The notes under the pieces: generated by a model
What the model was told of the DNA's origin: nothing
The model's database searches: none
The model's input: the letters and a program-made list of their open reading frames with translations, nothing else
Part shown: positions 2,085-48,345 of the stretch, piece after piece
How the letters are laid out: each line of letters starts with the position of its first letter
Position numbering within the stretch: the stretch's first letter is position 1
Made by a program: the position numbers and the translations under genes
NCBI GenBank assembly: GCA_003602645.1
Contig: QQSI01000040.1
Coordinates: 4,152 to 68,151, forward strand
DNA length: 64,000 nucleotides
Direction of reading: 5' to 3'
DNA from: Candidatus Poseidoniales archaeon
Lineage (GTDB): Archaea > Thermoplasmatota > Poseidoniia > Poseidoniales > Poseidoniaceae

Positions 2085-5000
2085 TCATGGTTGTCCTTGA
2101 TTTCTGTCAAGGTATTGCTGACCATAATGCACCCATTGTTCCATTGTCCAACCTGTGGGCAAGCCACCTTCGGGTACAGGTGGATGGGATGATTCGGTTG
2201 ATTGTTCGTGTTCAACTGGAGCTAAGGTCGCCTGCACATCAGGGATAGAGGCCGGTGGTCCGCTTGAGGCTGGCGGTCCAATTTGAACATCTTCTGGGAT
2301 TTCCTTTTCCAAGGTGAAGTCATCTTCATCATCTGAACGGGATCGCAAAAGGAGCACCATGAGGAGCGAGAAGGCAAGCAAAACCGCAATCCCGCCTGCG
2401 ACCACTTCAACCGAAGCACTTACGTCATCCACTGGGCGTTCTTCAAACTGGTATACCTGTGCGCCCTCCCAAGCTATTTCGCCGTCATGTGAAGCGATTA
2501 TGAATGTGATTTTCCCTTCCAATTGACCGCTAAGTCTGTGAAGCGTGCATGGGACATCTTGCAATTGAGGAGTGATATGTCCTGCACCAAACGTGAGATT
2601 TTGTCCATCCGCATCCATCAAGACACCATTGCATACGAGTTGCCATCCATCGGGGATTTGGGCTAGGAAAAGCATGTGTTCTGTTTGGCTTGAAACACTC
2701 GTCATGTTGACATAGAGTGGCACACCAGTCCCAGTGGCATGACTCATGGTATTCGGGACGCTAAGTTCTGCTTCGACGTGGCGTTGTTGATCGACAACGA
2801 TTAACGCCTCATGTTCCAATTCGTAAGGTTGCATTTCTGCATTCATGCCAGCAATAACTTGGAATGTAACGACAATTCTTGTGTTAAGAATCATGTCTTT
2901 GGGGAGAATCAGGTCGACTGTGAGAAGGGTGGATTGGTTTGCCAATAAAGTGATTGTCAGTGGTTCGTTCACAGCTTTTGTACTGCTGCTTAAACCGGTA
3001 GAAAAGAAGGCGACCATATCGGGTACGGGTGGAGAAGCAGATACACTTGCCAAGACGATGATTCCATCATCTGCTGCGTTACCAATATTGGTCAATGTAG
3101 CATTAATGCTGACCGTACCTCCAACAGTTGCCGATGTGGATTCAAATCCCCCTTCCAGTGAAGGTATTCGAACTGACGCCGTGATCGTATCAAAGGTTAC
3201 AATATTGTCTTGGGGTGTCAAATCCTCGAGGCCAAGGGCGTTTACGGCACTGATTGTGACGGTGTGGATTTCACTGGCTGCCTCTTCGCTTGGTACTTGG
3301 ACCCATAATTCTACGGTGGCGTTGTTCTCTAAATCATAAGGTGCAGAGAGTGAAATGGTTCCGTTATGCTGTGATCCATCCACTGTGATCCATGTGCTCC
3401 AGGCCATTGGGAGGTCAATTGTGGCGACGCTAGCCTCGATGGGCCCATTTCCATTATTGACCACTTCCAAGAGGATACGATTGGCAGTACCTGGTCGTAA
3501 TTTTGCAGGCGATTCTAAGAGTTCAATAGAGAGGTCGCTGATCGTTCGTACCACGATTGAATCAAAATCATCACCCGCGATGGTCATTCCACTTCGTTCA
3601 GAGGTAATTTGCGGGGTAATCGTTGGTGCTTTGTCACCGGCTTGGCCAGTTTCAGGTGCGGTTATTTTTGCTGTGAATGTGGTAGTGGCACCCGGATTGA
3701 TGACTGCATTGGGGCGCGTTGGCTGTTCAATGGTCCATAGCGATGAAGGATCATGAAGGATATTCATTGAAAAAATATCTTGACGAGAGGCATTATTCCA
3801 GATTGTAAATTCAACGGTTTTGGTTTCACCAGCATCGATCATCCAGTCCCTTGATGCTTGGTTATGGGTCATACCAACCTCGGCTTCGCTGATCATTGAT
3901 GCGGCAATATCAATGACTAACCCATGGGATTTAGCTGAATTATTTTGTGATTGGGCAAGCATGGTGAACGATACCACTGTGTCGGGAGTGGCTGTTGATG
4001 GAACTGTCATTGTTAGGCCAACCATCACCGGTGTGTCTGGCCGAACGAGGATTGATTCAGATTGAGTCCACGACAATTGAACCATCCATTGCTCTGGTAA
4101 ACTAAATTGATCTAGGGAGAGATCAAAAACATCGGTTGCGTCTCCGATGTTCCTTACCTCAACCTCAAACGGGCATGTGTAGCCGGGCGGGCATGCCGGG
4201 CGTGTTTCTGGTTGGATGACCAATGGTTCACGGTCCGGTAACACTTGGAATTGAACGGGTAATGTCGTGTTGATCGATTGATATTGACTTGATGTTCCTA
4301 TGAATGTCATTTGTTCGAATCCGGTCGTTGCGTTTTCATCCGGCTTAATTTTTACATCAATGGTTTTGCTTTCACCCGGGGCAAGCAACACCCCGGTTTG
4401 TTCGTTGATTGATACACCTGTTTGGTGAGCAAAATACACCTCCCAACCGCTCGGCAATTCATCGACAGAAGGAAGCACATAATCTGAAATGTTTCCATCA
4501 TTGGTTAAACTCACGCTCACCGTTCCCCATTCATTTGGTAGGGAACCCATTGTGGACACACCTGAGGACGAAAGCGCATATTCGATGGGCTTGACTTTTT
4601 GATCATACACAATGACAATGTCATCCAACCAAAAACCCACATCATTGACAGTTGCGTCGGTCGTAAGGATGAACCTAAATTTCGTTGAGGGTGAAAATCC
4701 ACTTTGTGGTGCGGGTATCAACGGTGATGATGTGCCTTGATTGTTGACAGAAAATGTTTGCCATGAGGCACCATCGATGAAGACTTGGTCGATGGTTCCC
4801 GAGATTGTAGCAAGTTCTGTGCTTGTTCCTGCGTTGTTTTGTACGTAGACTTTCAATTCATCACCGGGTTGGGAACTCCCAGTGTAAAAGAAGGAGAGCC
4901 CATTGGTCTGAAGCGGGGCCATCACCGCATCGGACATGTCGAAGGCAGGCGTTTCAAGAACACTTGTCGTTGATGCAGAATACGATGATGCTTCACCGTT

Positions 5001-5645
5001 ACCGGCATGACACGCAGTTCCTTGAGACAACGATGTGTCGGTGCTTAATCCCCATTCATTTGTCGTCGTCCACTGTGTGAGGTCGTTGCAATTAAAGTAA
5101 TGCGAAGCAACGGTGAAATGGCGGTTTCTTTGGTTATTTGAAGGGACGTCATCGAGGATCGTAGAAGTGCCGATCACCTGGATCGAGTGGTTTCCAGAGT
5201 AAGTAGGAGTAAAGGTAAACCCGATGGAATTTGATGCACCACCAGACAATCCTGCCATTTGTTGGGTGATGTTGATCATCTCAAAGAGCTGGTATTCATT
5301 GTGAAGAACCTTCAAGTTCACATCAATGGTACCTGATGGACTTGTCCCCTGGTTTTCTAACGTCACTTCAGCATAAATTGGGACGTTGACAACTGCGTCG
5401 ACGACATATAATTCAGCAGGTCGGTTGAATGCAGGAATTGGATGGTTCGAAGAAAACATACGGTATTTCGCTTCATCCACACTCGTTGTGTATGAAAAAG
5501 AGGTATTCGTTACTGTAACATCAACACCTGTGGCTTTCGCATTGCTCTGCAGAGGAGATTCTTCTTCAGGCGCCAATTGGGTGATTGGACTTGCAGTACC
5601 CATGACAAACAGAAGAACCAACAAAATTGCGGGGGCTCTTTTCAT
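2085..5645 (-). CDS. Giant anchored surface protein (adhesin/S-layer-like, about 1190-1210 aa)
   Basis: Uninterrupted 3.6-kb ORF. Signal-like N-terminus MKRAPAILLVLLFVMGTASP (start 5645; alternative ATGs at 5699 and 5717). Long Thr/Ser/Asn-rich beta-type modules with many N-x-S/T sequons. C-terminal TM anchor VVAGGIAVLLAFSLLMVLLLRSR, followed by an acidic/Pro-rich tail ending GLPTGWTMEQWVHYGQQYLD. Confidence 0.85.
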   Translation of the reverse strand: MKRAPAILLVLLFVMGTASPITQLAPEEESPLQSNAKATGVDVTVTNTSFSYTTSVDEAKYRMFSSNHPIPAFNRPAELYVVDAVVNVPIYAEVTLENQGTSPSGTIDVNLKVLHNEYQLFEMINITQQMAGLSGGASNSIGFTFTPTYSGNHSIQVIGTSTILDDVPSNNQRNRHFTVASHYFNCNDLTQWTTTNEWGLSTDTSLSQGTACHAGNGEASSYSASTTSVLETPAFDMSDAVMAPLQTNGLSFFYTGSSQPGDELKVYVQNNAGTSTELATISGTIDQVFIDGASWQTFSVNNQGTSSPLIPAPQSGFSPSTKFRFILTTDATVNDVGFWLDDIVIVYDQKVKPIEYALSSSGVSTMGSLPNEWGTVSVSLTNDGNISDYVLPSVDELPSGWEVYFAHQTGVSINEQTGVLLAPGESKTIDVKIKPDENATTGFEQMTFIGTSSQYQSINTTLPVQFQVLPDREPLVIQPETRPACPPGYTCPFEVEVRNIGDATDVFDLSLDQFSLPEQWMVQLSWTQSESILVRPDTPVMVGLTMTVPSTATPDTVVSFTMLAQSQNNSAKSHGLVIDIAASMISEAEVGMTHNQASRDWMIDAGETKTVEFTIWNNASRQDIFSMNILHDPSSLWTIEQPTRPNAVINPGATTTFTAKITAPETGQAGDKAPTITPQITSERSGMTIAGDDFDSIVVRTISDLSIELLESPAKLRPGTANRILLEVVNNGNGPIEASVATIDLPMAWSTWITVDGSQHNGTISLSAPYDLENNATVELWVQVPSEEAASEIHTVTISAVNALGLEDLTPQDNIVTFDTITASVRIPSLEGGFESTSATVGGTVSINATLTNIGNAADDGIIVLASVSASPPVPDMVAFFSTGLSSSTKAVNEPLTITLLANQSTLLTVDLILPKDMILNTRIVVTFQVIAGMNAEMQPYELEHEALIVVDQQRHVEAELSVPNTMSHATGTGVPLYVNMTSVSSQTEHMLFLAQIPDGWQLVCNGVLMDADGQNLTFGAGHITPQLQDVPCTLHRLSGQLEGKITFIIASHDGEIAWEGAQVYQFEERPVDDVSASVEVVAGGIAVLLAFSLLMVLLLRSRSDDEDDFTLEKEIPEDVQIGPPASSGPPASIPDVQATLAPVEHEQSTESSHPPVPEGGLPTGWTMEQWVHYGQQYLDRNQGQP

Positions 5646-5691
5646 GGCGCTCGCTCTGCTACACCGCTTCAAGGTATATGAGGAGAGTGGC

Positions 5692-6558
5692 TCATTCATT
5701 TTCCGAAGTTGATTCACGCCCTAGAGCATTTTCTATATCGTCTTCGGACTGTTTGAGTTTGACAGCATCTCGCTTCTCCTTTGCATTGGCTGCCCAATAC
5801 ACAGTAAAAGATGGGATAAGGACCATCGAGAAACACCCGGCAACGGCAGCGAGCGCCCACAAAAATTCAGTCGCAGCATCAACAGAAAACGGTTCTATGG
5901 TTGCGAATTCTTCATTCACCGTGGTGATGCTCATCGCAGGGGCTGTCGTTCGGTTGCCTCGTTCGATGATCTCGACCCTAATGAGCGAGGGTGAGTGCTC
6001 ATATTCAATGGCCTGTTCAGCCTTTACTTGCGCATCTTCAATGGTCTGGGCGTACACCGTACCGTTCGAACGACGCGCTGGGTCTGTGCTCGTTAGGGCA
6101 TTGATCCGTACATCGCCTCCATCCTCGGCAATGTAGGAGTGGGAGGTGTTCTTCTGGCAAGATTCTCTACAGCTAAACCCATCGGCATCCTCAGAACCCA
6201 AGAGTGGGTGACTGAACAAACCAGCGCCGTTAATCAAACGGACCTCGGCACCATTCGATACTTCTGTTGCGGTCAAATTAACCCACGTCAAATTTGCTCC
6301 ATTTGCCGGGACTGACCATGTCCAGGTTGTTGTGTTTTGATCGCCTTGGTAGATTCTGGTTGGTTCAATTTCCTGATGAAGGGTGGTGTTGGTATCGGTC
6401 TCGTAGAGGTAATAGGAAGGGGAGATCGTAGCACCGTAGACGGCGTACGAGAGCATGAAAATAAGTGTAAAGGAGAGCCCTAACAGGGTTCGTAGCAGGT
6501 TCGGGTTTTGAGCCAAAGCCTTCCTCATCGGGTTTAGGACGGACACGCCCTTCATCAA
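5692..6558 (-). CDS. Bitopic membrane/secreted protein, unknown function
   Basis: 288-aa ORF with an N-terminal TM (LLRTLLGLSFTLIFMLSYAVYG), an extracytoplasmic Thr/Asn-rich domain, a C-terminal TM (FLWALAAVAGCFSMVLIPSFTVYW) and a charged tail. Sits directly upstream of the giant surface gene. Confidence 0.6.
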   Translation of the reverse strand: MMKGVSVLNPMRKALAQNPNLLRTLLGLSFTLIFMLSYAVYGATISPSYYLYETDTNTTLHQEIEPTRIYQGDQNTTTWTWSVPANGANLTWVNLTATEVSNGAEVRLINGAGLFSHPLLGSEDADGFSCRESCQKNTSHSYIAEDGGDVRINALTSTDPARRSNGTVYAQTIEDAQVKAEQAIEYEHSPSLIRVEIIERGNRTTAPAMSITTVNEEFATIEPFSVDAATEFLWALAAVAGCFSMVLIPSFTVYWAANAKEKRDAVKLKQSEDDIENALGRESTSENE

Positions 6559-20978: not shown

Positions 20979-21029
20979 GGTGGGTGGTTGAAGCCATTGT
21001 TCTTCAACCCTCAGCCTCAGCAAGGAGCA

Positions 21030-22295
21030 ATGCGGACCGTTTTGTTGGACATCGGGCCCATGGCACATCTTGGAGGAAAGGGCTCTTTGTCTGGAACCTC
21101 AGCAACTGACTATGAATTATTGACATCTCCTGCTGGAAAAGGAATTGTAGTGAATGACGGCGTTATTGAGAAAATTGAAGAATCATCCGAACTTCGTTCC
21201 GAGTATGGCTCACCACAAGAATCGACCGTTGACGTATCCATTCAATCCTTGGAGGGTTGTGCGGTTGTTCCTGGTTTAGTGGATGGACATAACCATTTGA
21301 TTTGGTCCGGTGATCGTTCGAATGAGATGACGATGAAGCAGCAGGGAATGACATATCAACAAATCGCGGCTAATGGCGGCGGCATCCAGCACACTGTGAG
21401 GGAAACCTCAGAAGCCACATACGAAGAGCTGGTTAAATCGGGTTACCAACGTATGCGCCAGGCTCTTCTTCATGGTACAACACACTTAGAAAGCAAAAGC
21501 GGATATGGCTTGTCGACAGAATCAGAGCTAAAACTCCTGAATGTTGCACATGACCTAAGCCAGATGAATCACCTCCCCACCATGGAGTTGACATGGCTTG
21601 GCGCCCATGATACACCTAAAGGTGTCAATCGCACAGACTATGTTGAGGAAATTCTAAGCGACCAACTTCCCAAAGTACTTGATCAAGGCTATGCTGATGC
21701 CGCTGATGTCTTTTGCGAGCCAGGCTGGTTCACTGTCGAGGAGAGTGAATTGATATTGTCCGCTGCCGGAAAGGGTGGTCTTCGACAACGGATTCACATT
21801 GATGAATTCGAGGATGGTGGTGGTGGAGAATTGGCAGCATCACTGGGTGTCGTTACTGCTGATCATGCCCATTACACTGCGCCTGAAACGCGGTTGAAGA
21901 TGGAATCCGCCGGCGTCAATACTGGATTTTTACCAGGAACCCCCTATACAATGGGTGCAGAATGGCCTTCATTTTCAGATGCCACTGAACAGGGGATTCG
22001 GTGGACAGTTGCAACGGACTTCAATCCAAATTGTAATATTCTCAGCATGCCGCTGATTGGATCTATGCTTGTTCACCGTAACCAAGTTGACCCACTGCTT
22101 GCATTGGTGGCCTCAACCAGAAATGCGGCAGAAACGACTCCACACCCAACGGGGATGCCACATGGGCGAATCGAGGTTGGCGCAGTCGCTAACCTCAATG
22201 TGCTCGATGGGTACCAATGGCAATCATGGTGCAATCGTCCTGGTACCACGCCTTTCAAATCCACCATGTTGAATGGTACTTTGATTCACCATTGA
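21030..22295 (+). CDS. hutI: Imidazolonepropionase
   Basis: VPGLVDGHNHLIWSGDRSNE, ESKSGYGL, HIDEF and ADHAHYT are HutI amidohydrolase metal and substrate motifs. Start is ATG 21030 (MRTVLLDIG...); the track start at 20988 is also possible. Confidence 0.85.
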   Translation: MRTVLLDIGPMAHLGGKGSLSGTSATDYELLTSPAGKGIVVNDGVIEKIEESSELRSEYGSPQESTVDVSIQSLEGCAVVPGLVDGHNHLIWSGDRSNEMTMKQQGMTYQQIAANGGGIQHTVRETSEATYEELVKSGYQRMRQALLHGTTHLESKSGYGLSTESELKLLNVAHDLSQMNHLPTMELTWLGAHDTPKGVNRTDYVEEILSDQLPKVLDQGYADAADVFCEPGWFTVEESELILSAAGKGGLRQRIHIDEFEDGGGGELAASLGVVTADHAHYTAPETRLKMESAGVNTGFLPGTPYTMGAEWPSFSDATEQGIRWTVATDFNPNCNILSMPLIGSMLVHRNQVDPLLALVASTRNAAETTPHPTGMPHGRIEVGAVANLNVLDGYQWQSWCNRPGTTPFKSTMLNGTLIHH

Positions 22296-22349
22296 TATAT
22301 TTCTAAATGCCAACTCAAATCCTTTTGCTATAAAACGTGGGTGAAATGT

Positions 22350-22694
22350 ATGGATTCAGAAATCAATAATGTTCTTGTCGAAACTGTAGTTTGTGCCGGA
22401 GCCGAAGGAAAGGAAGCGAGATTTTTGCGGATGATCGAAACGCGCCAGGCATTCAAACGTCGCCAGAAGGGGTGCCTAGCTGCCTGGGTTGGATCATCAA
22501 CCGATGGAATAGGATTGGTACTGGTTCAAACTGTATTCTCTGATCGTGACAGTTGGAAAACCATTTCTGAATCCGTTGTCAACACACTCGACGCAAAAGA
22601 CGGTGGTCTTGAGTCTGTATTGGCCGGCCCTCCCCTTGTTGGAATGTTCGAAATTGATCCATCCAAACTGAATCTGGATGATGCACGGGAATAA
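22350..22694 (+). CDS. Hypothetical protein, possibly ABM/Dabb-like
   Basis: 114-aa ORF. A TATA-like CTATAAAA at about 22328-22335 suggests a near-leaderless start at ATG 22350 (the track's GTG is at 22341). Fold assignment is weak. Confidence 0.4.
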   Translation: MDSEINNVLVETVVCAGAEGKEARFLRMIETRQAFKRRQKGCLAAWVGSSTDGIGLVLVQTVFSDRDSWKTISESVVNTLDAKDGGLESVLAGPPLVGMFEIDPSKLNLDDARE

Positions 22695-22745: not shown

Positions 22746-22971
22746 CGAACGAAATTTGCGATTTTTCGGGTGTTTCCGTCCTTTCCAAATCATAGAGCAG
22801 TACATCGTTTAGCCCCGTCCACGAGAAAAATATTTTCAAAAATTCTGACTTTTTGCCCATCAAGGAGGGGGTTTGAGGGTGGAATAACGTCTTTTTTGAA
22901 AAAGTCCATGCTTGACATGAAATTTTGTCGAAGCAACTAAGAAATGAATATCTCAGGAGGAAATGAGTTCG

Positions 22972-23124
22972 ATGTCTGCAGTAGAAGGATTCTGTTTGAA
23001 GTGCAAGACCTATGGTCCGATTAAGGACGGCCAACTGATCAAAATGAAAAATGGGCGTACGCGCATGGCGGGCTTCTGCTCACAACCAGGATGCAGTGGA
23101 AAAATTTCTAAGATCGTGAGCTAA
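22972..23124 (+). CDS. Small zinc-ribbon protein (50-53 aa, DUF5679-like), below the ORF-track cutoff
   Basis: Hand translation gives MSAVEGFCLKCKTYGPIKDGQLIKMKNGRTRMAGFCSQPGCSGKISKIVS*, with a CxxC...CxxxC arrangement. AGGAGG lies at 22955-22960. An in-frame alternative ATG is at 22963. Confidence 0.6.
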   Translation: MSAVEGFCLKCKTYGPIKDGQLIKMKNGRTRMAGFCSQPGCSGKISKIVS

Positions 23125-23342: not shown

Positions 23343-23714
23343 TTAATCTTCAATACGAGTCAAATCTTCCGGACTTGGTAAGACGAGATCGTCTGGGTCG
23401 ACGCGAGCAAGCGGTCGTTCTTCGATTTCTTCCATTGTGAAATCCGATGAGCCGCCATCCCAATTCACTAAATCCTCGGTTTCCTCAAATATTTCATCAG
23501 GCAGAGCCTGTTCTGTGGACAGCGAATATGCCGCAGGGTCTATTGGTTCACGACGTACAGGTTCGGCATTGGCAGGAACAAAGCGCTCTTCCATATGGAT
23601 GCCGGAGTGGAAGGTGCCACATTCAGAACATCGAACGGTGCCGCTTCTCTCAAAACAACCACAGTTAGGACAAGATGCCAAGGTAGCATACACCTTCAAT
23701 GGATCCTTGCCCAT
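23343..23714 (-). CDS. Acidic zinc-ribbon protein (123 aa)
   Basis: CPNCGCFERSGTVRCSECGTF (CxxC-x10-CxxC) is followed by an Asp/Glu/Pro-rich tail. ATG 23714 lies 4 nt after the upstream stop; the track start at 23771 would overlap the upstream gene. Confidence 0.55.
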   Translation of the reverse strand: MGKDPLKVYATLASCPNCGCFERSGTVRCSECGTFHSGIHMEERFVPANAEPVRREPIDPAAYSLSTEQALPDEIFEETEDLVNWDGGSSDFTMEEIEERPLARVDPDDLVLPSPEDLTRIED

Positions 23715-23718
23715 TCCA

Positions 23719-25611
23719 TCACTCCACGAACATGTCTTCCTGGTAGCCCGTGATGATATCCCCTGTACCATCTTCCTCGATTGTCACGGTTTCGTCTTCG
23801 TCATCGAACTCTATGATTGTTCCAAAGACCTCCTCGTCCTCAAGTGTAAGACCGATGTGTGAGCCAATATCGATTTCTCCTTCCCCTTCATCATCCTCAT
23901 CTTCCTCAGGTTCATCTGACTCGTCATGAGATTCATCATCCAACTCTTCATCTTCGAAATCCTCTTCGAGAGCCTCTTCCATTTCTTCTTCGAGGTCCCC
24001 ATCATCATCATTATCTTCAGATTCGGACGAAGCATCTGCTTGATCGTCTTGGACTTCCTTCATTGCCTTAGCGCGTGCACGCCAGCTAGGCATGAGCGCT
24101 AGATGCATGTAAAGTGAACCAGCTAATCCTGCTGCGCCAAGTACCATAAACAAAATACCGTCCCAATAGAAACCAGCAGGCATCGAACTTGCTTCACCAC
24201 TTAGGGGCGTTAACGAGTTCTTACAGTCGCCTTCCTGAATTGCTGGATCACAAGGGTAAGAATCACCTTCGGCAAGACCCGCAGGAGGGAGTAAATTGCC
24301 TTTGGTCTCTAGCTCAATTGGGCCGCCAGTTCCATCGACAATGACACCGAATCCATTCACGACCCACACGGCAATGAAAAGGCCAAATGCTAAGTGAATC
24401 AACGGCCATACATATTCGTTCCATTGCTTCCCCATCATGCGCTTTTGCATATCAGTTGGGAAGGGTTTGGTTGGTTTGCTGATGACAGCTCTTTCATCCG
24501 TTGCTTCATCGGCATCTGCCAAATTTTCTAAAGCTGTGATGAATTCTATCATGTCCACCGTTCGATCGTTGTCATCATCAACTTCAGACAGGAATTCTTC
24601 GATATCCTTGTGACCGATTTCATCATCAAAGAGCTTGTTCAATTCGTTCATTAGTTCGACAACATCGACGCGCCCATTGGCATCTCTGTCAATGCTCTTG
24701 AAGAATTGAGCTGGCGAGGTTTCCATTTCATCCATGGCATCAGCGATTTTGCGAATGAGCGAAACCTCCTCGATGCTTTCTTCTTCTGAAGGATCTTCAT
24801 CGGACGCCTCATCTTCGTCCATTGATTCTTCGCCGTTTTCCTCTTCTGAATCCAATGTTTCCTCTTCGACCACCTCTTCGTGTTCTGATTCAGAATCTTC
24901 AGATTCGTCATCATCCTGGGAATCTTGGATTTCCTCTTCATCAAGGTTTGATTCTGTTTGAACTTCTTCGTCAGGTTCGCCTTCATCCTCTGTTTCAATT
25001 TCCTCTTCTGGATCATCATCCACTTGGATTTCGGGATCGGTTTCCACCTCATCGTCTGAGTCATTGTCTTCTTCGTTTTCCGAATCTTCTTCCATTGCAT
25101 CCTCATCTTCAGAGGTTGTTGAATGATCCATTTTTTCGTCTTCTGGCAAGTCATCTCCGGTGATGGTTTTATGCAACTCAGCAAGGTCAATCCTTCCATC
25201 TCCGTCAGCATCGATTGTCTCAATGAGGCGCTCAACTTGAGATGGTGGCAAATCTGCTAGATTGAGGCTCAACAGTCCTGACTTCAATTCACTTGAGTCG
25301 ATTTGACCATCGCCATCCTTGTCAAATTTATTGAACAGCATCGGAATTGTAATCCCTGTTGTTGCCAACCAATTGCGCAGCACATCAACGACGTCGTCGG
25401 CGATAAAAACTGTACCACAGTGGCTACATTTTGTGGAATCTAAAGGCACGAGGCCACCGCATGCACCGCACTCTCCGAGGGCTTCATCGGATACACCGGA
25501 AAAAGAAATATTACATTCAGGACATTTGGTTGAATCGAGGGGAATTACTGCTCTGCAAGCACCACATTCTCCTGTAGCAACTTCTTCAGTCTTGTCTTCG
25601 GACATGGGCAC
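23719..25611 (-). CDS. Membrane protein with a double zinc ribbon, two EF-hand pairs, poly-acidic tracts and two TM helices
   Basis: Zinc ribbons: CGACRAVIPLDSTKCPECN and CGACGGLVPLDSTKCSHCG. Four canonical 12-residue EF loops: DKDGDGQIDSSE, DADGDGRIDLAE, DRDANGRVDVVE, DDDNDRTVDMIE. TM helices lie at about residues 400-425 and 483-507. The D/E tracts are more than 60% acidic. Confidence 0.8.
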   Translation of the reverse strand: MPMSEDKTEEVATGECGACRAVIPLDSTKCPECNISFSGVSDEALGECGACGGLVPLDSTKCSHCGTVFIADDVVDVLRNWLATTGITIPMLFNKFDKDGDGQIDSSELKSGLLSLNLADLPPSQVERLIETIDADGDGRIDLAELHKTITGDDLPEDEKMDHSTTSEDEDAMEEDSENEEDNDSDDEVETDPEIQVDDDPEEEIETEDEGEPDEEVQTESNLDEEEIQDSQDDDESEDSESEHEEVVEEETLDSEEENGEESMDEDEASDEDPSEEESIEEVSLIRKIADAMDEMETSPAQFFKSIDRDANGRVDVVELMNELNKLFDDEIGHKDIEEFLSEVDDDNDRTVDMIEFITALENLADADEATDERAVISKPTKPFPTDMQKRMMGKQWNEYVWPLIHLAFGLFIAVWVVNGFGVIVDGTGGPIELETKGNLLPPAGLAEGDSYPCDPAIQEGDCKNSLTPLSGEASSMPAGFYWDGILFMVLGAAGLAGSLYMHLALMPSWRARAKAMKEVQDDQADASSESEDNDDDGDLEEEMEEALEEDFEDEELDDESHDESDEPEEDEDDEGEGEIDIGSHIGLTLEDEEVFGTIIEFDDEDETVTIEEDGTGDIITGYQEDMFVE

Positions 25612-25676: not shown

Positions 25677-26567
25677 ATGGAGGGCTCAAACATGAGTGGC
25701 GTGACGATGAAAAACCTCCTACGCGGACAGGTTTACAGTTGCAATTTTGCCGATGGAACAACCATGTTTGAATGGATTGATCTCACATCCCAATCAAAGG
25801 ATGACCACCTCGTTTTTGTCTCTAGACTCCCACACAGAAGATTGCTCGACCGCATTGATGTCTCAAAGGTCGAAACATATTGGATGACGCACCGGGTGGG
25901 CCAAGCCCATATCGCCCCTGATTTGGAACAGTTACACAAACTCATGCTTTCCCGTATATCCAACCATCATGGATGTATTATTCTCGAAGGGTTAGAATGG
26001 TTAGTGACCTTGCACGGAGAAACGGTGGTGTTGAACTTCGTTCGTAGTTTGAGGGATGATTTACATCGAACTCAATGGTCGATTTTGATCCCCATCAAAC
26101 CGCTCGCCTTCAATTCAATTTGGTTGGCGCGTTTTCACCGTGAGGCGCCAGATATTTATTTGATGATAGAAGACCATGCCGAAGAAGTCATTCATAATGT
26201 GGAAGTGGACGTCGAGGAACCAAAAACAGAAGCCGCATCAACAGAGGAAGGATTACCGGTGCTGGTGATGCTGAACCGGCTTCCTAAGGTTGGGTTTACC
26301 AAGTCCATTCTACGAAAGCGAATTTTACAATGGCGGAGGATGGGGCTTGATGTCTCAGAAGTTGAACCCGCCCTCCATTTAGGCCCCGCAGCATCATACG
26401 ATTTGTATGCTGTTGTTGAAGAAAAAGTTCGTCGCGCTGTGGAACTCGAACAATTGGTCGATGCAACTCAAGAACACCTCACCGCAAGTGAACAAACCAC
26501 ATGTAAATTTAGAATCCGTCAACTCACTGGATTCGATGATATCCAAGCGATGTTAATGTCCCGGTAG
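25677..26567 (+). CDS. DUF835-like protein with a C-terminal helical extension
   Basis: LLRGQVYS..., FVSRLPHRRL, YWMTH......IAPDLEQLHKLM and CIILEGLEWLVTLHGETVVLNFVRSLRDDL......LIPIKPLAF follow the archaeal DUF835 pattern as I recall it. No Walker A motif and no TM segment. Confidence 0.5.
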   Translation: MEGSNMSGVTMKNLLRGQVYSCNFADGTTMFEWIDLTSQSKDDHLVFVSRLPHRRLLDRIDVSKVETYWMTHRVGQAHIAPDLEQLHKLMLSRISNHHGCIILEGLEWLVTLHGETVVLNFVRSLRDDLHRTQWSILIPIKPLAFNSIWLARFHREAPDIYLMIEDHAEEVIHNVEVDVEEPKTEAASTEEGLPVLVMLNRLPKVGFTKSILRKRILQWRRMGLDVSEVEPALHLGPAASYDLYAVVEEKVRRAVELEQLVDATQEHLTASEQTTCKFRIRQLTGFDDIQAMLMSR

Positions 26568-28118
26568 TCATCGAGGAATACGACCGTTTTCCGCTTCAAT
26601 CCGTGCTAACCATGCTCCATCTGACAATGCAGTGGCGATGTTGATGAGTTCTCTACTTGTGCTGCGATCACCAGTGAGGGGCTTTGCTAGCGTGCGCACG
26701 CGTTGCTTCAGACTTGCAACATATGTGGAAGGCTCAAGCGACTCAAATTCCAATGCTTCGCATGCAACCAACAGTTCACAGGCCAATACTTCTGAGAATC
26801 GTTGTGTGGCTTGAAGCAGGTTCCATGCGGCGGTAGCACCCATGCTGACATGGTCTTCTTGTCCAGCCGAAGTACTGGTGGAAAAGGCGGCTCGCGGACT
26901 TGCATGTCCATGGAGTTCCGCCAGGGATGCTCCGGCCACATACTGGACAATCATCAAACCAGATTCCAACCCCGAGTTCTTTGCCAAAAAAGCAGGCAAT
27001 TCACTGCGCGCTGGGTCGAGCATTTGGTCAATCCTACGTTCAGAAATTGAGCCGAGTTCAAACAAGGCAGCAGACATGGAATCTGCTGTTAATGCGATCA
27101 CCTCTCCATGAAAATTCCCTTGTGAAATGACTTCGTGCGGGCCCGGGTTCTTTGGGTCGGGGAAAATAAGGGGATTGTCGGTGGCGCTGTTCAATTCAAT
27201 CGTAATGGTTTCTAGCATGGAACTGTATTTTTGCAAGACGGCTCCATGAACTTGAGGGGCACATCGAAATGAATACGCATCTTGGACTCGTTCACAATTG
27301 GCGTGTGAGGCAAGAATTTGAGAATTCATCATGAAGGTCCGAATTCTCTTGGCAACAAGGCTTTGTCCAGGATGTGGTCTTGCATCGTGTACACGTGGGT
27401 CCGAGGGTTGAACACTTGCTTTTCTGGCCTCCATCGATGTGCAAAGGATGAGGTCTGCGAGTGGGAGCAGTGAAGAGAGTTTTCGCTCGGCAAGGGTCAT
27501 GAAGGCCAACATTTGACTTGTCCCATTGATCAATGATAATCCGTCCTTAGCACCCAATCGAACACCTATGAGTCCGTGTTCTCTGAGCACAGCCTCGGTG
27601 GGTGTTGGCGCTCCATCTTGGTCGAGAACATAGCCTTCCCCGAGCAATGCTAGCGCCATGTGAGAGAGTGGTGCTAAATCTCCACTTGCACCAAGACTTC
27701 CAATTCGCGGCACATGAGGAATGATGTCCTTATTGAGAAAATCAACGAGTTGCTCCACAACCTTTGGATGGACGCCTGAGTGGCCTTTGACAAGGGAATT
27801 TATTCGAACAGCCATCATCGCGCGAACGGCATGTTTTGGCATTGGTTCACCGAGGCCAGTGGCGTGTGAACGAACTAAATTGGTTTGCAATTGGGCCAAA
27901 TCATCGGGAGAGATTCGTTCATGAACCAAGGCACCAAATCCTGTATTGATGCCGTAAACCGTTTCCCCACGGCTCAATATTCCATCCACAACAGAGCGAG
28001 CAGCGTGTACATTTTGCCATGCATCTTCTGAAACAGCTACATCGGCATGGTTTGATGCGATCCGCTCAACTTCAGCGGGAGTAAGGGTTGTGCCATCAAA
28101 GTGAATTGTGTTTCTCAT
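26568..28118 (-). CDS. hutH: Histidine ammonia-lyase
   Basis: The MIO-forming SLGASGDLAPLSH, plus GINTGFG, LVRSHA and QDAYSFRCAPQVHG. Confidence 0.9.
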   Translation of the reverse strand: MRNTIHFDGTTLTPAEVERIASNHADVAVSEDAWQNVHAARSVVDGILSRGETVYGINTGFGALVHERISPDDLAQLQTNLVRSHATGLGEPMPKHAVRAMMAVRINSLVKGHSGVHPKVVEQLVDFLNKDIIPHVPRIGSLGASGDLAPLSHMALALLGEGYVLDQDGAPTPTEAVLREHGLIGVRLGAKDGLSLINGTSQMLAFMTLAERKLSSLLPLADLILCTSMEARKASVQPSDPRVHDARPHPGQSLVAKRIRTFMMNSQILASHANCERVQDAYSFRCAPQVHGAVLQKYSSMLETITIELNSATDNPLIFPDPKNPGPHEVISQGNFHGEVIALTADSMSAALFELGSISERRIDQMLDPARSELPAFLAKNSGLESGLMIVQYVAGASLAELHGHASPRAAFSTSTSAGQEDHVSMGATAAWNLLQATQRFSEVLACELLVACEALEFESLEPSTYVASLKQRVRTLAKPLTGDRSTSRELINIATALSDGAWLARIEAENGRIPR

Positions 28119-30211
28119 GGTTCATCACCGTCTGGAAAAAGAGAATCGAGGAGTTGAGAATCTGTCGAGTGCGGAAGTGTGATGTTGAGCCTTTTCTCAG
28201 CCTTCATTGCCCTTTTTATGGCGAATTTTGCGCCATCATTACGAGCCCAAGCCCTTCTTGCCACACCATTGTTGACGTCCCAATGAAGCATTGATTGAAG
28301 CTTTTCCTCACACTCATTGCTTCCATCAAGTAACATACCAAACCCACCGTTCATTACTTGGCCCCAACCTACACCTCCTCCATTGTGAAGACTGACCCAA
28401 GTTGCGCCTCGGAAAGCATCACCGACAAAATTCTGAACAGCCATGTCTGCGGTCCACATGGATCCGTCTCGGATGTTTGCAGTTTCTCGATAAGGACTGT
28501 CCGTTCCTGAAACATCATGATGGTCGCGACCTAACACAACGGGGCCAGAAAGTTCGCCGTTTCGAATGGCTTGATTCATCGCAGAAGCGATTTTCCTCCG
28601 GCCTTCATCATCTGCATAGAGAATGCGTGCTTGGGAACCAACCACCATTTGATTTTGGCCTGCCTCCTTAATCCACCGAATGTTGTCCCTCATTTGTTGT
28701 GTGATTTCTGAAGGTGATGTATCCATCATGGATTCAAGCACTTCCATTGCAATCTGATCCGTCTTTTTCAGATCATCTGGATCGCCCGAACAACACACCC
28801 ATCGATAAGGACCAAACCCATAATCGAAACACATTGGTCCCATGATATCTTCAACGTAACTTGGATACCTAAAACTTCCATCACTGTTGAGCACGTCAGC
28901 CCCAGCTCTACTAGCTTCAAGCAAGAAGGCATTCCCATAATCCCAGAAATACATGCCTTGTTCTGACATGTGATTGATAGCATCGGCGTGTCGCACAAGG
29001 GTTTCACGGACTTTATTCTTGAACAATTCAGGATTGTTAGAAAGCATTTCAGCGGCTTCGGCGTAAGGCATTCCTACGGGGAAATATCCTCCTTGGAATG
29101 GATTGTGAAGGCTTGTTTGATCTGATCCAAGGTCAACTCGAACATTTCTTTCTACCAGTCGTTCCCAAAGTGCGACGATGTTGCCAACGTAGCCAATGGA
29201 TATTGCTTGACGGTTGGCAGCGCATTCAACCATCCGATCTATGGCAACATCGATGTCCTCGGTGACCTCGGTTAACCAGCCCTGATGGTGACGCTTGTAT
29301 GCTGCATGTGCGTTGGATTCCGCCACAATACACGACGCACCGGCAATGACCGCTGCCTTTGCTTGTGCACCTGACATGCCTCCGAGACCTGATGTGACGA
29401 AGGTAACACCTTCCAGACCCGACTCGCCAGATAGACCCAAATGCGCTCTTGCAGCGTTAAGGAGTGTGATGGTCGTACCATGGACAATACCTTGTGGGCC
29501 AATGTACATGTAAGACCCTGCCGTCATCTGACCATATTGTGTGACGCCGAGTGCGTTGAGGCGTTCGTAATTCTCAGGTGTCGACTCACTAGGAATCATC
29601 ATTCCATTGGTGACAATCACTCGCGGTGCATTGATATTGGAAGGAAAAAGCCCCATTGGATGGCCAGAATACATCACCAGCGTTTGATCATCGTTCATGA
29701 TTGAAAGGTACTGCATGGTCAACCTGTATTGAGCCCAATTTTGGAACACCGAACCGTTCCCACCATAGGTGATGAGTTCATGTGGGAATTGAGCAACTGC
29801 AGGGTCCAAATTATTCTGAATCATGAGCATGATTGATGCGGCATGAATCGATTTCGCGGGGTAGGCATCGATTGGATGGGCTTTCATTTCGTATTCAGTG
29901 GGACGGAACCTCCACATGATAATACGCCCAAATGTGTTCAATTCATCTGCAAACTCAGGTCCAAGAATAGCGTGGTGTTTTTCATCGAAGTAACGCAACG
30001 CATTTTCCAGTGCTAATTTTTTTTCTTGACGGGAAAGAACTTGACGTCTTTTAGGGGCCATATCGACGTTTGGATCAATGCCCGGGTGAGCAGGGAGGGT
30101 GTCGGGGATTCCCTCTGCTATATGCGCTCTTAACCCACTCACATCAGCGCCCATGTTTGGTTCAAACCACGCCTTGTCCTTGAGCGTTCGTATTGGGCTT
30201 TTTCGCATCAA
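28115..30211 (-). CDS. hutU: Urocanate hydratase, long form (698 aa)
   Basis: ELITYGGNGSVFQNWAQY, YSGHPMGLFP, MIPSESTPENYE, GQMTAGSYMYIGPQGIVHGT and GLGGMSGAQ are urocanase strings. A 4-nt overlap couples it to hutH. Confidence 0.9.
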   Translation of the reverse strand: MMRKSPIRTLKDKAWFEPNMGADVSGLRAHIAEGIPDTLPAHPGIDPNVDMAPKRRQVLSRQEKKLALENALRYFDEKHHAILGPEFADELNTFGRIIMWRFRPTEYEMKAHPIDAYPAKSIHAASIMLMIQNNLDPAVAQFPHELITYGGNGSVFQNWAQYRLTMQYLSIMNDDQTLVMYSGHPMGLFPSNINAPRVIVTNGMMIPSESTPENYERLNALGVTQYGQMTAGSYMYIGPQGIVHGTTITLLNAARAHLGLSGESGLEGVTFVTSGLGGMSGAQAKAAVIAGASCIVAESNAHAAYKRHHQGWLTEVTEDIDVAIDRMVECAANRQAISIGYVGNIVALWERLVERNVRVDLGSDQTSLHNPFQGGYFPVGMPYAEAAEMLSNNPELFKNKVRETLVRHADAINHMSEQGMYFWDYGNAFLLEASRAGADVLNSDGSFRYPSYVEDIMGPMCFDYGFGPYRWVCCSGDPDDLKKTDQIAMEVLESMMDTSPSEITQQMRDNIRWIKEAGQNQMVVGSQARILYADDEGRRKIASAMNQAIRNGELSGPVVLGRDHHDVSGTDSPYRETANIRDGSMWTADMAVQNFVGDAFRGATWVSLHNGGGVGWGQVMNGGFGMLLDGSNECEEKLQSMLHWDVNNGVARRAWARNDGAKFAIKRAMKAEKRLNITLPHSTDSQLLDSLFPDGDEP

Positions 30212-37042: not shown

Positions 37043-38089
37043 ATGCACCCCCTCGTCGAATGCGTACCTAATATTTCAGAAGGCAGAGATGCTGAGAAAA
37101 TCCAACGGATCGTGGCCGCCGCATCCACATTCGATGGGTGCTCAGTTTTGGGTGTCGAACCTGATGCTGATTACAACCGAACTGTAATCACAATCGCAGG
37201 GTCGCCTGAATCGGTTGCTTCGGCAGCCTTCGCCCTTGTTTCCATGGCCATTGCGGAAATTGATATGCGTTCCCATAGCGGAGAACACCCAAGGCTAGGT
37301 GCCGTCGATGTTTGTCCGTTTGTCCCACTGGCAGACACCACAATGGATCAATGTGCCGAACTTGCAAGATCGCTTGCCAAGCGGGTAGCGGAGGAATTGG
37401 ATGTTCCAACTTTCTTGTACGGTGCAGCGGCCACACATCCTGCAAAATCCCTCCTATCCTCGATTCGCAAAGGTGAATATGAGGGGCTGGAAAATCGCCT
37501 TACAAATGGAAACTCTCCGCATGATGAGCACACCAGATACCCAGATTTTGGTCCAAGAGATTGGTCCGAGGGTGTAGCGCGATCTGGGGGTTTGACGTTT
37601 GGGGCACGAGAAATTCTCGTAGCCTACAATGTTAATTTGAACGAGTCTGACGCGAAAGTAGCTCGTTTGGTTGGGTCATTAGTGCGATCATCCGGCCGTT
37701 TGGTCAAGAAAGACGATGGACGAAGAATGAGGATCCCTGGTTCGTTGCCGATGGTTCAAGGCATGGGTGTCCCTCTGGAATCCCACGGTATTAGTCAAGT
37801 TTCTATGAACCTCAGGGATGTCAATCAGTGCCCAATGCATGTGGCCTTTGAGGCTTGCAAATCAATCGCGATGGACCATGGCGTGGAGGTACCTGGAAGC
37901 GAGGTTGTTGGTCTAGTTCCACTTTCTGCAATTTTGACCGCAGGCCAATGGTATGCCAAGGATGGGGAAACCAATGAATCTGCACTGGTGGACGCGGCCA
38001 TTCGAGGTCTAGGATTGGACAATTTGAATGCGTTTGACCCGAAAGAACGGATTATTGAATATGCACTCAAGGAAGGTGAAATCGAGTGA
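37043..38089 (+). CDS. Glutamate formimidoyltransferase (FTCD N-terminal-domain homologue)
   Basis: LVECVPNISEGRD, DADYNRTVITIAG and HPRLGAVDVCPFVPL are formiminotransferase strings. Start set at MHPLVECVPN. Confidence 0.85.
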   Translation: MHPLVECVPNISEGRDAEKIQRIVAAASTFDGCSVLGVEPDADYNRTVITIAGSPESVASAAFALVSMAIAEIDMRSHSGEHPRLGAVDVCPFVPLADTTMDQCAELARSLAKRVAEELDVPTFLYGAAATHPAKSLLSSIRKGEYEGLENRLTNGNSPHDEHTRYPDFGPRDWSEGVARSGGLTFGAREILVAYNVNLNESDAKVARLVGSLVRSSGRLVKKDDGRRMRIPGSLPMVQGMGVPLESHGISQVSMNLRDVNQCPMHVAFEACKSIAMDHGVEVPGSEVVGLVPLSAILTAGQWYAKDGETNESALVDAAIRGLGLDNLNAFDPKERIIEYALKEGEIE

Positions 38090-38715
38090 ATTGGATGGAT
38101 CTCACTCTAGAAGAGTTCCAGAACCATCTGGCGTCAGACGATCCAACTCCGGGGGGTGGCACCGCAGCAGCAATTGCCTTGGGTCAAGCGGCAGCACTCA
38201 CCGAAATGGTTGCTGGCCTAACATTGGGTAGAGAAAAATGGCAATCTGGGTGGGTTGCTGCTGAAACTGCTCGTGCGGTAGCACGACGGGTCATGGTGCG
38301 TTCAGGTGAACTCGCCAAAGAAGACAGTCAGGCCTTCGACTCTGTGGTTGCCGGATTTAAAATGCCAAAATCAACGGAGGAAGAAAAGGATGCTCGTCGG
38401 CAATCCATTCGGCTTGCGACCTTGCATGCTGCCGAGGTACCATTAGCGACATCCCAGCATGGAATGGAATTGCTGAATGTCCTTTCAAGTTTAGCAACCC
38501 ATGGCAATGCAAATGCTGCTTCTGACGTAGGAGTGGCCTCCCTTCTTGCCAGTGCGGCAGTCAAGGGTGCACTTTTCAACGTGGACATCAATGTAGCAGC
38601 ACTTCCGGTTGATATGGCCCAGCATGTCATCGAACAGTGCGCTGGGATGCGTGAAGAATGCAGCAGAATCTCACGCCTCGTCATGCATGCGGTTCATGAG
38701 AGGATTAATTCTTGA
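38086..38715 (+). CDS. Formimidoyltetrahydrofolate cyclodeaminase (FTCD C-terminal-domain homologue)
   Basis: LEEFQNHLASDDPTPGGGTAAAIALGQAAALTEMV...D..AF......K.P fits the cyclodeaminase/cyclohydrolase family pattern. Its GTG overlaps the upstream stop (GTGA). Confidence 0.8.
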   Translation: MNWMDLTLEEFQNHLASDDPTPGGGTAAAIALGQAAALTEMVAGLTLGREKWQSGWVAAETARAVARRVMVRSGELAKEDSQAFDSVVAGFKMPKSTEEEKDARRQSIRLATLHAAEVPLATSQHGMELLNVLSSLATHGNANAASDVGVASLLASAAVKGALFNVDINVAALPVDMAQHVIEQCAGMREECSRISRLVMHAVHERINS

Positions 38716-48210: not shown

Positions 48211-48345
48211 CCGCTAATTTTTCCTGATTTCTTCTTTTCCTGCATTGGTGATGCATTCACCGATTTGTTTTCAGTGTTGATTGATTCATCTGGGTCCAAG
48301 GGGAGTCGTGGTTTGGGCGTCAAGGCAACTGGTTGCATTGCATTT

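Follow-up and report, generated by a model that had tools for sequence, protein, structure and literature searches.

We describe a candidate Ca2+-responsive membrane scaffold encoded in a 64,000-nt stretch of genomic DNA from Candidatus Poseidoniales archaeon (assembly GCA_003602645.1, contig QQSI01000040.1, forward-strand positions 4,152 to 68,151; this whole stretch is called the window, and all coordinates refer to it). The scaffold gene occupies the minus strand within 23719..25611, and its product combines a double zinc ribbon, two pairs of EF hands, a transmembrane (TM) hairpin, two poly-acidic linkers and a C-terminal domain. Our preferred and still tentative reading, to which we give a little less than an even chance, is a Poseidoniales-specific, membrane-anchored cytoplasmic scaffold with a split calmodulin as its Ca2+ input. 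The domains, their conservation, the trio that the gene forms with two neighbors and the fold-level similarities were established directly. This is a new architecture of known domains in a family already labelled as EF-hand proteins in the database, and two modules that had no family assignment, the TM-loop-TM segment and a hyper-acidic Tudor-like end domain, are defined here.

The scaffold family and its distribution

A search of a large protein database returned 1844 matches to the scaffold. The best 120 of these were all 590–640 aa long and carried generic names, such as “EF-hand domain-containing protein [Euryarchaeota archaeon]”. When one genome per GTDB species was scanned, a relative was found in 149 species, and where the assignment was specific, these species belonged to Poseidoniales, Poseidoniaceae or Poseidonia. 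The one exception was L061, a 4.9-kb contig binned as Salipiger bermudensis; one family member was named Thalassarchaeaceae. The scaffold family is confined to Poseidoniales (Marine Group II, MGII), in which the gene is single-copy and conserved across the order. Also, comparison of residues 370–630 with 1.84 billion cluster representatives gave 87 matches, mostly family members or their fragments.

Conservation was analyzed in 60 full-length orthologues, which together with the window protein made a set of 61 sequences. Mean identity to the window protein was 76% for the ribbons, 73% for EF pair 1, 40% for EF pair 2, 62% for the TM-loop-TM segment and 79% for the C-terminal domain. The survey of this architecture that an earlier, sequence-only reading of the same DNA had proposed thus revealed domains that are 62–79% identical order-wide, save for the second EF pair. 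That the feature is only a low-complexity expansion or a mis-called open reading frame (ORF) is close to inconceivable. Approximately 40% of the ORF is compositionally biased, as such an explanation would require, but the explanation is refuted by the numbers of homologues in the database and in GTDB, by the conserved Cys residues and EF ligands and by domain identities of 40–79% across the order; besides, no DNA tandem repeats of note were found in the scaffold gene, linker 1 included. The three findings that the sequence-only reading had named as fatal to its proposal (EF ligands that are not conserved, a family lacking TM segments, and a low-complexity expansion without conservation) were all absent.

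The ORF (23719..25611, minus strand) is 630 aa long when read from GTG 25611 and was the sole long ORF at that place in the ORF list. Residue numbering throughout counts from this GTG. The 630-aa frame given in the sequence-only reading exists, and the part of the claim that needs correction is the start, which is probably ATG 25605 (628 aa; gene 23719..25605, minus strand). This start is favored because the database protein P0001, 100% identical to the window protein, has the same length of 628 aa, because the orthologues begin with MSED or MTEE, and because AGGTG is located 5–6 nt upstream of ATG 25605; GTG 25611 itself falls within this AGGTG.

It has been remarked, in one sentence, that protein-family modules specific to MGIIa or MGIIb contain calcium-binding domains (PMC9258230). 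Full-text literature searching found nothing on the scaffold family beyond this remark.

EF-hand lobes

Each of the two EF-hand pairs follows an additional helix. Pair 1 and its conserved preceding helix comprise residues 72–152 (25156..25398, minus strand), with loops D97–E108 and D134–E145, and pair 2 with its preceding helix comprises residues 285–371 (24499..24759, minus strand), with loops D308–E319 and D345–E356. In the hidden Markov model (HMM) scan, four EF-hand profiles scored above their curated Pfam cutoffs: EF-hand_1 (E=9.4e-17, 59.7 bits versus a cutoff of 25.4), EF-hand_7 (E=3.6e-15, 56.5 versus 30 bits, with the match at residues 92–148 in pair 1), EF-hand_6 (46.4 versus 25 bits) and EF-hand_5 (46.4 versus 25.9 bits). 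Such a scan had been proposed in the sequence-only reading, and its outcome agreed with the EF hands that were expected.

Ligand positions 1, 3, 5, 9 and 12 were canonical in all four loops of the 60 orthologues. Position by position in the 61 sequences, we found Asp at position 1 (with one ambiguous X in EF1), Asp, Asn or Ser at positions 3 and 5, Asp, Ser or Thr at position 9 and Glu at position 12 without exception. Position 8 was Ile, Val or Leu, rarely Ala, throughout. Gly occupied position 6 in EF1–EF3; EF4 (DDDNDRTVDMIE) had Arg at this position, as compared to Gly in 49 of the 61 sequences. The description of four textbook loops was therefore correct with regard to the four 12-residue loops and their conserved ligands, and a slight overstatement with regard to EF4. 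The loops are predicted to bind Ca2+ because all ligand positions are strictly conserved, including the bidentate Glu12.

AlphaFold2 (AF2), run on a 25-sequence alignment of database proteins, modelled both pairs confidently as paired helix-loop-helix units with short loop strands. The predicted local distance difference test score (pLDDT) was 76–90 for pair 1 and about 90 for pair 2 (76–93 over the helices and loop strands of the EF hands), and each lobe had an extra conserved N-terminal helix in the model. The best PDB sequence relatives of the EF region were calmodulins (E about 1e-12), and calmodulin and troponin C were best overall. Similarly, Foldseek aligned both pairs on the two lobes of calmodulin and troponin C, at 12–17% identity. 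By HMM score, loop chemistry and fold, the scaffold belongs to the EF-hand superfamily (PF00036/PF13499). Calmodulin proper, a soluble protein of ~150 aa with a short central helix, was ruled out as a description of the scaffold, whose lobes are 130 residues apart in a protein of 630 aa with two TM helices.

Membrane hairpin and topology

TM helix 1 (residues 395–424; 24340..24429, minus strand) corresponds to a hydropathy segment at ~400–426 and to an AF2 helix at 395–420 (pLDDT >90), and is preceded by a basic juxtamembrane stretch, KPFPTDMQKRMMGKQW. Among the 61 sequences this segment had no Lys or Arg and a median of zero acidic residues. TM helix 2 was assigned to residues 484–507 by hydropathy (24091..24162, minus strand; AF2 helix 483–529, likewise modelled with confidence). 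It is followed by the basic sequence SWRARAKAMKE, and 4–6 Lys or Arg were present in this C-terminal flank in all orthologues. The predicted extracytoplasmic loop between the helices (residues 425–483; 24163..24339, minus strand) contains the invariant Cys454 and Cys463, the motifs VDGTGG and NSLTP...SSMP.GFY.DG. and many invariant columns. All ten Cys of the scaffold, eight in the ribbons and two in the loop, were invariant in the 60 full-length orthologues. Two TM helices flanking a two-Cys loop had been noticed in the sequence-only reading and were confirmed, with both the helices and the Cys conserved; the loop is about 58–60 residues long, compared with the 55 claimed. As anticipated there, no described family spans the protein: neither Pfam nor NCBIfam held a family covering the architecture, the TM-loop-TM module or the C-terminal domain.

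Each TM flank had a median of 4 Lys or Arg, as against 2 basic and 10 acidic residues in the 58–60-residue loop, and a sequence scan of the scaffold revealed no N-terminal signal or N-terminal TM segment. Because the flanks are basic, the loop is acidic and a signal is absent, both arms are predicted by the positive-inside rule to be cytoplasmic, with the Cys loop outside. Ribbon Cys inside the cell and a likely loop disulfide outside are consistent with this topology, and the two loop Cys are probably disulfide-bonded. The EF hands, predicted to be cytoplasmic, would therefore report intracellular rather than seawater Ca2+. A Ca2+ device at the membrane, as suggested earlier, was supported insofar as the scaffold is a conserved integral membrane protein with intact EF hands; its EF hands, however, are placed in the cytoplasm. 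An extracytoplasmic EF-hand sensor resembling STIM was considered and rejected, as the positive-inside pattern and the missing signal peptide put the EF hands inside, according to this prediction.

A separate family of ~610–640-aa proteins (P0163, L086:1541-3460, and P0185) has two tandem TM-loop-TM copies with the Cys pair and NS(F/L)TP, and no EF hands or zinc ribbons. P0163 adjoins a transaldolase gene. A transaldolase gene is also found at ~60 kb in the window, and a second TM-loop module was looked for in the window and was not found.

The loop is the only part of the scaffold that would be exposed, and its many invariant residues (VDGTGG, C454, C463, NSLTP and SMP.G.Y.D) raise the alternative of an outside-in receptor, in which the disulfide loop senses an extracellular cue, the arms and a neighboring DUF835 protein relay it, and the EF hands only modulate the response. 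The tandem reuse of the TM-loop-TM module in P0163 and P0185 and the role of DUF835 as a signalling output domain also fit a receptor. However, a ligand-binding domain of 58 residues would be small, AF2 modelled the loop with low confidence, and in the relatives P0171 and P0197 the loop motifs with the Cys are missing although the remainder of the protein is retained. We regard such a receptor as very unlikely.

Acidic linkers

Linker 1 (residues 153–284; 24760..25155, minus strand; pLDDT <50 over 161–280) joins the two EF pairs, and linker 2 (residues 521–579; 23875..24051, minus strand; pLDDT <50 over 533–540 and 552–582) leads to the C-terminal domain. Asp and Glu made up 54% of residues 151–290 and 52% of residues 536–630. 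For the whole ORF the value was 32%, compared with a mean of 13.3% for the 47 longest non-overlapping ORFs of the window, and the most acidic 40-residue stretch of the scaffold reached 72%, compared with at most 47% in every other window ORF. The acidity of the scaffold is an outlier in the window and no general trait of the proteins of this organism. Next in acidity within the window came a stretch (47% Asp/Glu over 40 residues) of a 770-aa WD40 beta-propeller protein (48202-50514, plus strand).

Across the orthologues, linker 1 ranged from 51 to 258 residues, with a median of 52% Asp/Glu, ~1% Lys/Arg and 23% identity to the window protein, and linker 2 ranged from 45 to 119 residues, with a median of 63% Asp/Glu, about 1–2% Lys/Arg and 34% identity. 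The linkers thus keep their composition, while their sequence and length drift. The Asp/Glu tract of ~130 residues that had been noted after EF pair 1 is present. As for the about 110 acidic residues said to close the protein, the region is indeed acidic; what was taken for one tail is a disordered linker of 45–60 residues followed by a folded 50-residue barrel at 580–630, the Tudor-like domain that the sequence-only reading missed. In several orthologues of 740–760 aa (L032, L033, L061, L064 and L075) and in P0135, a third EF-hand pair is inserted in linker 1, and some of these longer orthologues have, in addition, a short inserted helical segment (YNENVLSKVMES...NSYLKKEELQAAA). Domain insertion thus seems to be tolerated in the acidic linker.

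This composition brings up the possibility of a cytoplasmic buffer for Ca2+ or other divalent cations, with the EF hands as high-affinity sites and poly-Asp/Glu as high-capacity, low-affinity sites, which together absorb seawater Ca2+ as it leaks in at the membrane. Calsequestrin and other Ca2+ buffers with acidic tails are well established, and the scaffold offers 32% Asp/Glu overall, tracts above 50% that are almost devoid of Lys and Arg, four intact EF loops and a site next to the membrane, where influx occurs. On the other hand, invariant zinc ribbons, a conserved loop outside the cytoplasm, an end domain of Tudor type and a dedicated partner would all be superfluous in a buffer. Prokaryotic cytoplasmic Ca2+ is typically sub-micromolar, a level at which low-affinity sites would be nearly empty, and there is a single gene per genome and no sign of high abundance. 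Moreover, the acidic tracts are also found in orthologues that lack EF hands, which weakens the idea that tracts and EF hands form one Ca2+-buffering unit. No calsequestrin-type family was among the Pfam matches of the scaffold. A buffering role is, in our judgment, quite unlikely.

Variation in EF-hand number

We found that the number of EF hands varies within the family, with two in P0149 and P0171, six in P0135 and in some GTDB orthologues, and none in P0197, P0207 and P0297. Orthologues with zero, two or six EF hands occupied the same syntenic site and kept the ribbons, acidic linkers, TM hairpin and barrel, as well as the partner and DUF835 genes described below. For example, the site of P0197 and P0297 (the latter on a 3.0-Mb contig, with a locus of 68% GC) comprised hutU, hutH, the divergent DUF835 gene, the scaffold gene, a small zinc-ribbon gene and then hutI and kae1. 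EF-less forms are rare: when P0197, itself EF-less, served as the query, precomputed EF-hand Pfam domains were lacking in just a handful of the 109 matches.

The conserved core accordingly consists of the double zinc ribbon, an acidic tether, the TM hairpin, a second acidic tether and the Tudor-like barrel, together with the two neighbor genes, and EF lobes have been added to or removed from it. Because orthologues with zero, two or six EF hands keep the remaining architecture and the neighbors, Ca2+ binding would be an accessory input rather than the core function. The Ca2+ sensing or buffering suggested in the sequence-only reading is, by the same evidence, better described as accessory.

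The EF-less orthologues, which retain everything else including both neighbor genes, suit another explanation, a static structural tether in which the EF hands are permanently metal-loaded and the ribbon and Tudor-like ends are positioned on polyanionic spacers, with no Ca2+ signalling involved. Conserved linker composition is what would be expected of entropic spacers, and EF numbers of 0, 2, 4 and 6 look as if the pairs were modular spacers too. This explanation, which we consider unlikely, has to contend with the presence of EF hands in nearly all listed members and with ligand positions, including the bidentate Glu12, that are strongly constrained in 60 species, beyond what a spacer needs.

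Terminal domains

The C-terminal beta-barrel (residues 580–630; 23722..23874, minus strand) has 18 Asp or Glu and no Lys or Arg. It is nearly invariant over 50 residues (IDIGSHIGL...GYQEDMFVE), and AF2 gave a confident beta model, a five-stranded SH3-like barrel. According to this model the domain is Tudor/SH3-like in fold only, as there was no Pfam match, the best match in a PDB profile search had E=0.35, and hhalign against the Tudor domain of SMN gave a probability of 0.06%, which is not significant. The barrel contains only four aromatic residues (F596, F602, Y623 and F628), and an aromatic cage was not evident from these, the hhalign alignment being unreliable.

The barrel recurs as the C-terminal end of other, unrelated proteins, in most cases behind an acidic stretch, as would be expected of a protein-binding module. 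Three such proteins were seen. P0175 (154 aa; L084:6601-7065 and L085:4720-5184) has a phage-type integrase gene next to it; in L084 an N6/N4 DNA methyltransferase gene is close by as well. P0167 (1361 aa; L082:8001-12086), with a weak match to a NinI-like phosphatase, was located on a 41-kb contig with large same-strand ORFs and almost no Pfam matches. P0201 (L088:965-1687) is a TM protein with YDIDVDD repeats. These occurrences suggest a binding module that moves between proteins and may have been taken up by mobile elements. Viruses may carry it as well, judging from context (the integrase neighbor, the 41-kb contig of unannotated ORFs and weak PHROG matches); a scan of IMG/VR viral contigs found no Tudor-like domain of this kind.

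At the other end of the scaffold, the double zinc ribbon (residues 14–68; 25408..25572, minus strand) has C16/C19/C30/C33 and C48/C51/C62/C65 as its putative ligands. A motif scan placed CxxC at residues 16, 30, 48 and 62, that is, two tandem CxxC-x10-CxxC ribbons, and all eight Cys were invariant in 61 of 61 sequences. In the AF2 model the ribbons form short paired strands (pLDDT about 63–82). The Pfam DZR profile (PF12773) scored 19.8 bits in the window protein, below the cutoff of 27.3, and 33.6 bits, above the same cutoff, in the relative P0171; many homologues have a precomputed PF12773 match. The tandem ribbons recognized in the sequence-only reading are thus real and invariant, with a DZR match that stays sub-cutoff in the window protein.

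Zinc ribbons and Tudor/KOW-like barrels are typical binders of nucleic-acid machinery. Hence one might think of a tether from the nucleoid, ribosome or RNA polymerase to the membrane, in which ribbons and barrel bind the machinery and the polyanionic linkers, as nucleic-acid mimics, retain basic proteins. The lamin B receptor (LBR), which couples a Tudor domain to a membrane anchor, can be cited in favor of this tether as a functional analogy only, with no homology. LBR, a sterol reductase of the inner nuclear membrane in eukaryotes, has a basic RS linker, whereas the linkers of the scaffold are acidic. We hold a tether of this kind to be improbable, about as much so as the receptor discussed above.

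Neighboring genes

The partner gene (23343..23714, minus strand) encodes a 123-aa protein with one zinc ribbon (CPxCG...CxECG; CxxC-x10-CxxC) and an acidic tail. Its ATG at 23714 is located 4 nt past the scaffold TGA and has GGAG 7 nt upstream. These motifs of Shine-Dalgarno type and the 4-nt gap suggest that translation of the partner is coupled to that of the scaffold. The zinc-ribbon gene with an acidic tail 4 nt downstream is as the sequence-only reading had it. In 65 orthologues the short motifs DPxxYSL, PxExFxE and WxGGSTDF of the tail were conserved. The partner was present at 68 of 78 loci, always immediately downstream and on the same strand, and all 10 loci without it ended less than 800 nt beyond the scaffold-gene match.

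The divergently transcribed gene on the other side (25677..26567, plus strand) encodes a 296-aa DUF835 (“inactivated KaiC”) protein (E=3.9e-10, 40.1 bits versus a cutoff of 33.1; profile positions 19–135 of 136). It was found at 73 of 78 loci, and also beside distant orthologues in L079, L080 and L083. Most contigs of the 78 GTDB loci that lacked the partner or the DUF835 gene stopped short of the expected position. A protein search with this neighbor gave only Poseidoniales orthologues among the 120 matches listed. In the alignment, the most conserved part of the protein was not the DUF835 domain but a basic C-terminal module (LRKRILQWRRMGLDVSEVEPAL ... VEEKVRRAVELE ... RFRIRQLTGLDEIE; window positions 26230-26560), which forms its C-terminal third. 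This module had no match in Pfam or PDB, and the PDB sequence search with the DUF835 protein found no match. It looks like an amphipathic helix of the calmodulin-target type, and was equally conserved beside EF-less orthologues.

The order hutU, hutH, trio, DUF5679 gene, hutI and kae1 forms a ~12-kb block that is syntenic across the order. The proposed check of co-conservation was thus positive for both neighbors, within a block that is syntenic as a whole. In L083 an extra gene separates the partner from the DUF5679 gene, yet the trio is contiguous; that the trio stays intact where other neighbors differ adds some weight to a functional linkage. PADLOC defence-system models had no match for any of the three trio proteins.

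In the EF-less and two-EF lineages the partner keeps its ribbon and the motifs DPxxYSL, ExF and WxGGxxDF, and the DUF835 protein keeps its basic module. A simple model in which the partner is the target of the EF hands was rejected, as the partner motifs are unchanged beside EF-less orthologues; the partner more probably binds the core rather than the EF lobes.

Past the partner, on the opposite strand, are two small genes that are as syntenic as the trio: one for a 53-aa Cys-rich DUF5679 protein (22963-23124, plus strand; 25.7 bits, just under the cutoff of 27; 54 of 78 loci) and one for a 117-aa ABM-like protein (22341-22694, plus strand; 50 of 78 loci). The hut genes (20988-22295 and 26568-30211) are split around the trio, which separates hutU and hutH from hutI. 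About 9 kb away, ORFs at 37043-38715 look like glutamate formiminotransferase and cyclodeaminase by N-terminal sequence. The hut arrangement is conserved across Poseidoniales, and no functional link between it and the trio was found. Elsewhere in the window, a 1204-aa protein (2085-5699, minus strand) with CARDB, NPCBM_assoc and Ig-like domains and 4% Lys/Arg is probably surface- or S-layer-associated.

Proposed mechanism

From these features we infer that the scaffold binds Ca2+ and behaves as a sensor, and also which ligands it has and what its biological output is, as follows. In the scaffold reading, the TM hairpin would fix two long polyanionic arms at the cytoplasmic face of the membrane and leave the small loop outside. 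The N-terminal arm would carry the double zinc ribbon followed by a “split calmodulin”, i.e., two EF lobes on an acidic tether of ~130 residues, and the C-terminal arm would be a second acidic tether ending in the hyper-acidic Tudor/SH3-like barrel. The conserved composition of the linkers, their drifting length and sequence and the disorder modelled by AF2 support a scaffold character. The scaffold would act with the zinc-ribbon partner, presumed to be co-transcribed, which bears short linear motifs on its tail, and with the divergent DUF835 protein. Rising cytoplasmic Ca2+ would load the four EF loops, each with its Glu12, and the loaded lobes would change shape in the manner of calmodulin-type sensors, opening hydrophobic clefts by analogy with calmodulin and EfhP. 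This change would alter which partners the arms hold at the membrane. Basic amphipathic segments would be the natural ligands, given the strong acidity of both the lobes and the end barrel. A candidate is LRKRILQWRRMGL of the DUF835 protein, the best conserved segment of this type nearby. The description of DUF835 as a response-regulator output domain (PMC5847659) and the demonstrated Ca2+ sensing of EfhP (PMC9132961) provide a signalling context for this reading.

Several points weigh against this reading. EF hands are dispensable in some orthologues, namely in P0197, P0207 and P0297, which have none, and in P0149 and P0171, which have two. The neighbors cannot be EF-specific targets, because EF-less and two-EF lineages retain the partner motifs and the basic module of the DUF835 protein without change. 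Adjacency by itself is weak evidence of functional linkage, since synteny across the order extends over the entire block, hutU through kae1. The second EF pair is fast-evolving, and in the clade of the window protein position 6 of the EF4 loop is Arg. The positive-inside rule is the sole basis of the predicted topology, and AF2 modelled the inter-TM loop with low confidence (pLDDT 48–56). Finally, the sequence would fit sensor and buffer behavior equally well.

A further-reaching version treats the trio as a self-contained Ca2+ second-messenger module, in which Ca2+ influx from 10 mM seawater would drive recruitment or release of the inactivated-KaiC protein and the zinc-ribbon adaptor, and in which the Tudor-like hub would be tapped by domain copies in integrase-linked contexts. 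We consider this version unlikely. If true, Archaea would gain their first defined Ca2+ signalling pathway, and this in a group that ranks among the most abundant archaea of the surface ocean. If the EF hands are structural, the protein would merely be a lineage-specific scaffold. Ca2+ signalling in archaea is almost unexplored, and the scaffold provides an entry point in abundant uncultured marine archaea, with calmodulin-grade EF loops predicted on the cytoplasmic side, two conserved candidate partners encoded alongside, and natural variants with 0, 2, 4 and 6 EF hands that represent an evolutionary deletion series.

Comparison with known systems

The N-terminus of the scaffold resembles DZR proteins in its two tandem CxxC-x10-CxxC ribbons, and relatives pass the profile cutoff; the window protein itself scores below it, and the Pfam label “Double zinc ribbon” is uninformative on role. 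The C-terminal domain shares its modelled fold with Tudor/SH3-like barrels (the Tudor domains of MTF2, PHF19, TDRD3 and SMN; the KOW domains of Spt5/NusG), but there is no sequence relationship, and the scaffold barrel is hyper-acidic and lacks Lys and Arg. Calsequestrin-type buffers likewise have a very high content of acidic residues, compatible with low-affinity cation binding. They differ in that they reside in a lumen, whereas the arms of the scaffold are placed in the cytoplasm, and its tracts form disordered connections from one conserved domain to the next. As described in PMC5847659, DUF835 is an output domain of archaeal response regulators and resembles an inactivated KaiC (iKaiC). 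The neighbor at 25677-26567 passes the DUF835 cutoff and, unlike those regulators, has no REC or PAS domain; instead it has its own conserved basic C-terminal module outside any Pfam family.

The best-studied prokaryotic EF-hand Ca2+ sensor is EfhP (PA4107) of Pseudomonas aeruginosa, which binds Ca2+ with a Kd of 13.7 µM, becomes more hydrophobic upon Ca2+ binding and has demonstrated sensor behavior (PMC9132961). Both proteins are prokaryotic and have canonical EF loops, but EfhP, for which a periplasmic location is now predicted (PMC9132961), has two EF hands, whereas the scaffold has four, predicted to be cytoplasmic, in addition to four other modules. Calmodulin and troponin C share with the scaffold two EF pairs and canonical 12-residue loops, and the lobes of the scaffold, which are likewise acidic, would presumably clasp basic amphipathic helices. 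However, the lobes of calmodulin are joined by a central helix and those of the scaffold by a disordered poly-acidic linker of ~130 residues, and, in contrast to calmodulin and troponin C, each scaffold lobe has an extra N-terminal helix and is part of a 630-aa membrane protein that also contains zinc ribbons and a Tudor-like domain.

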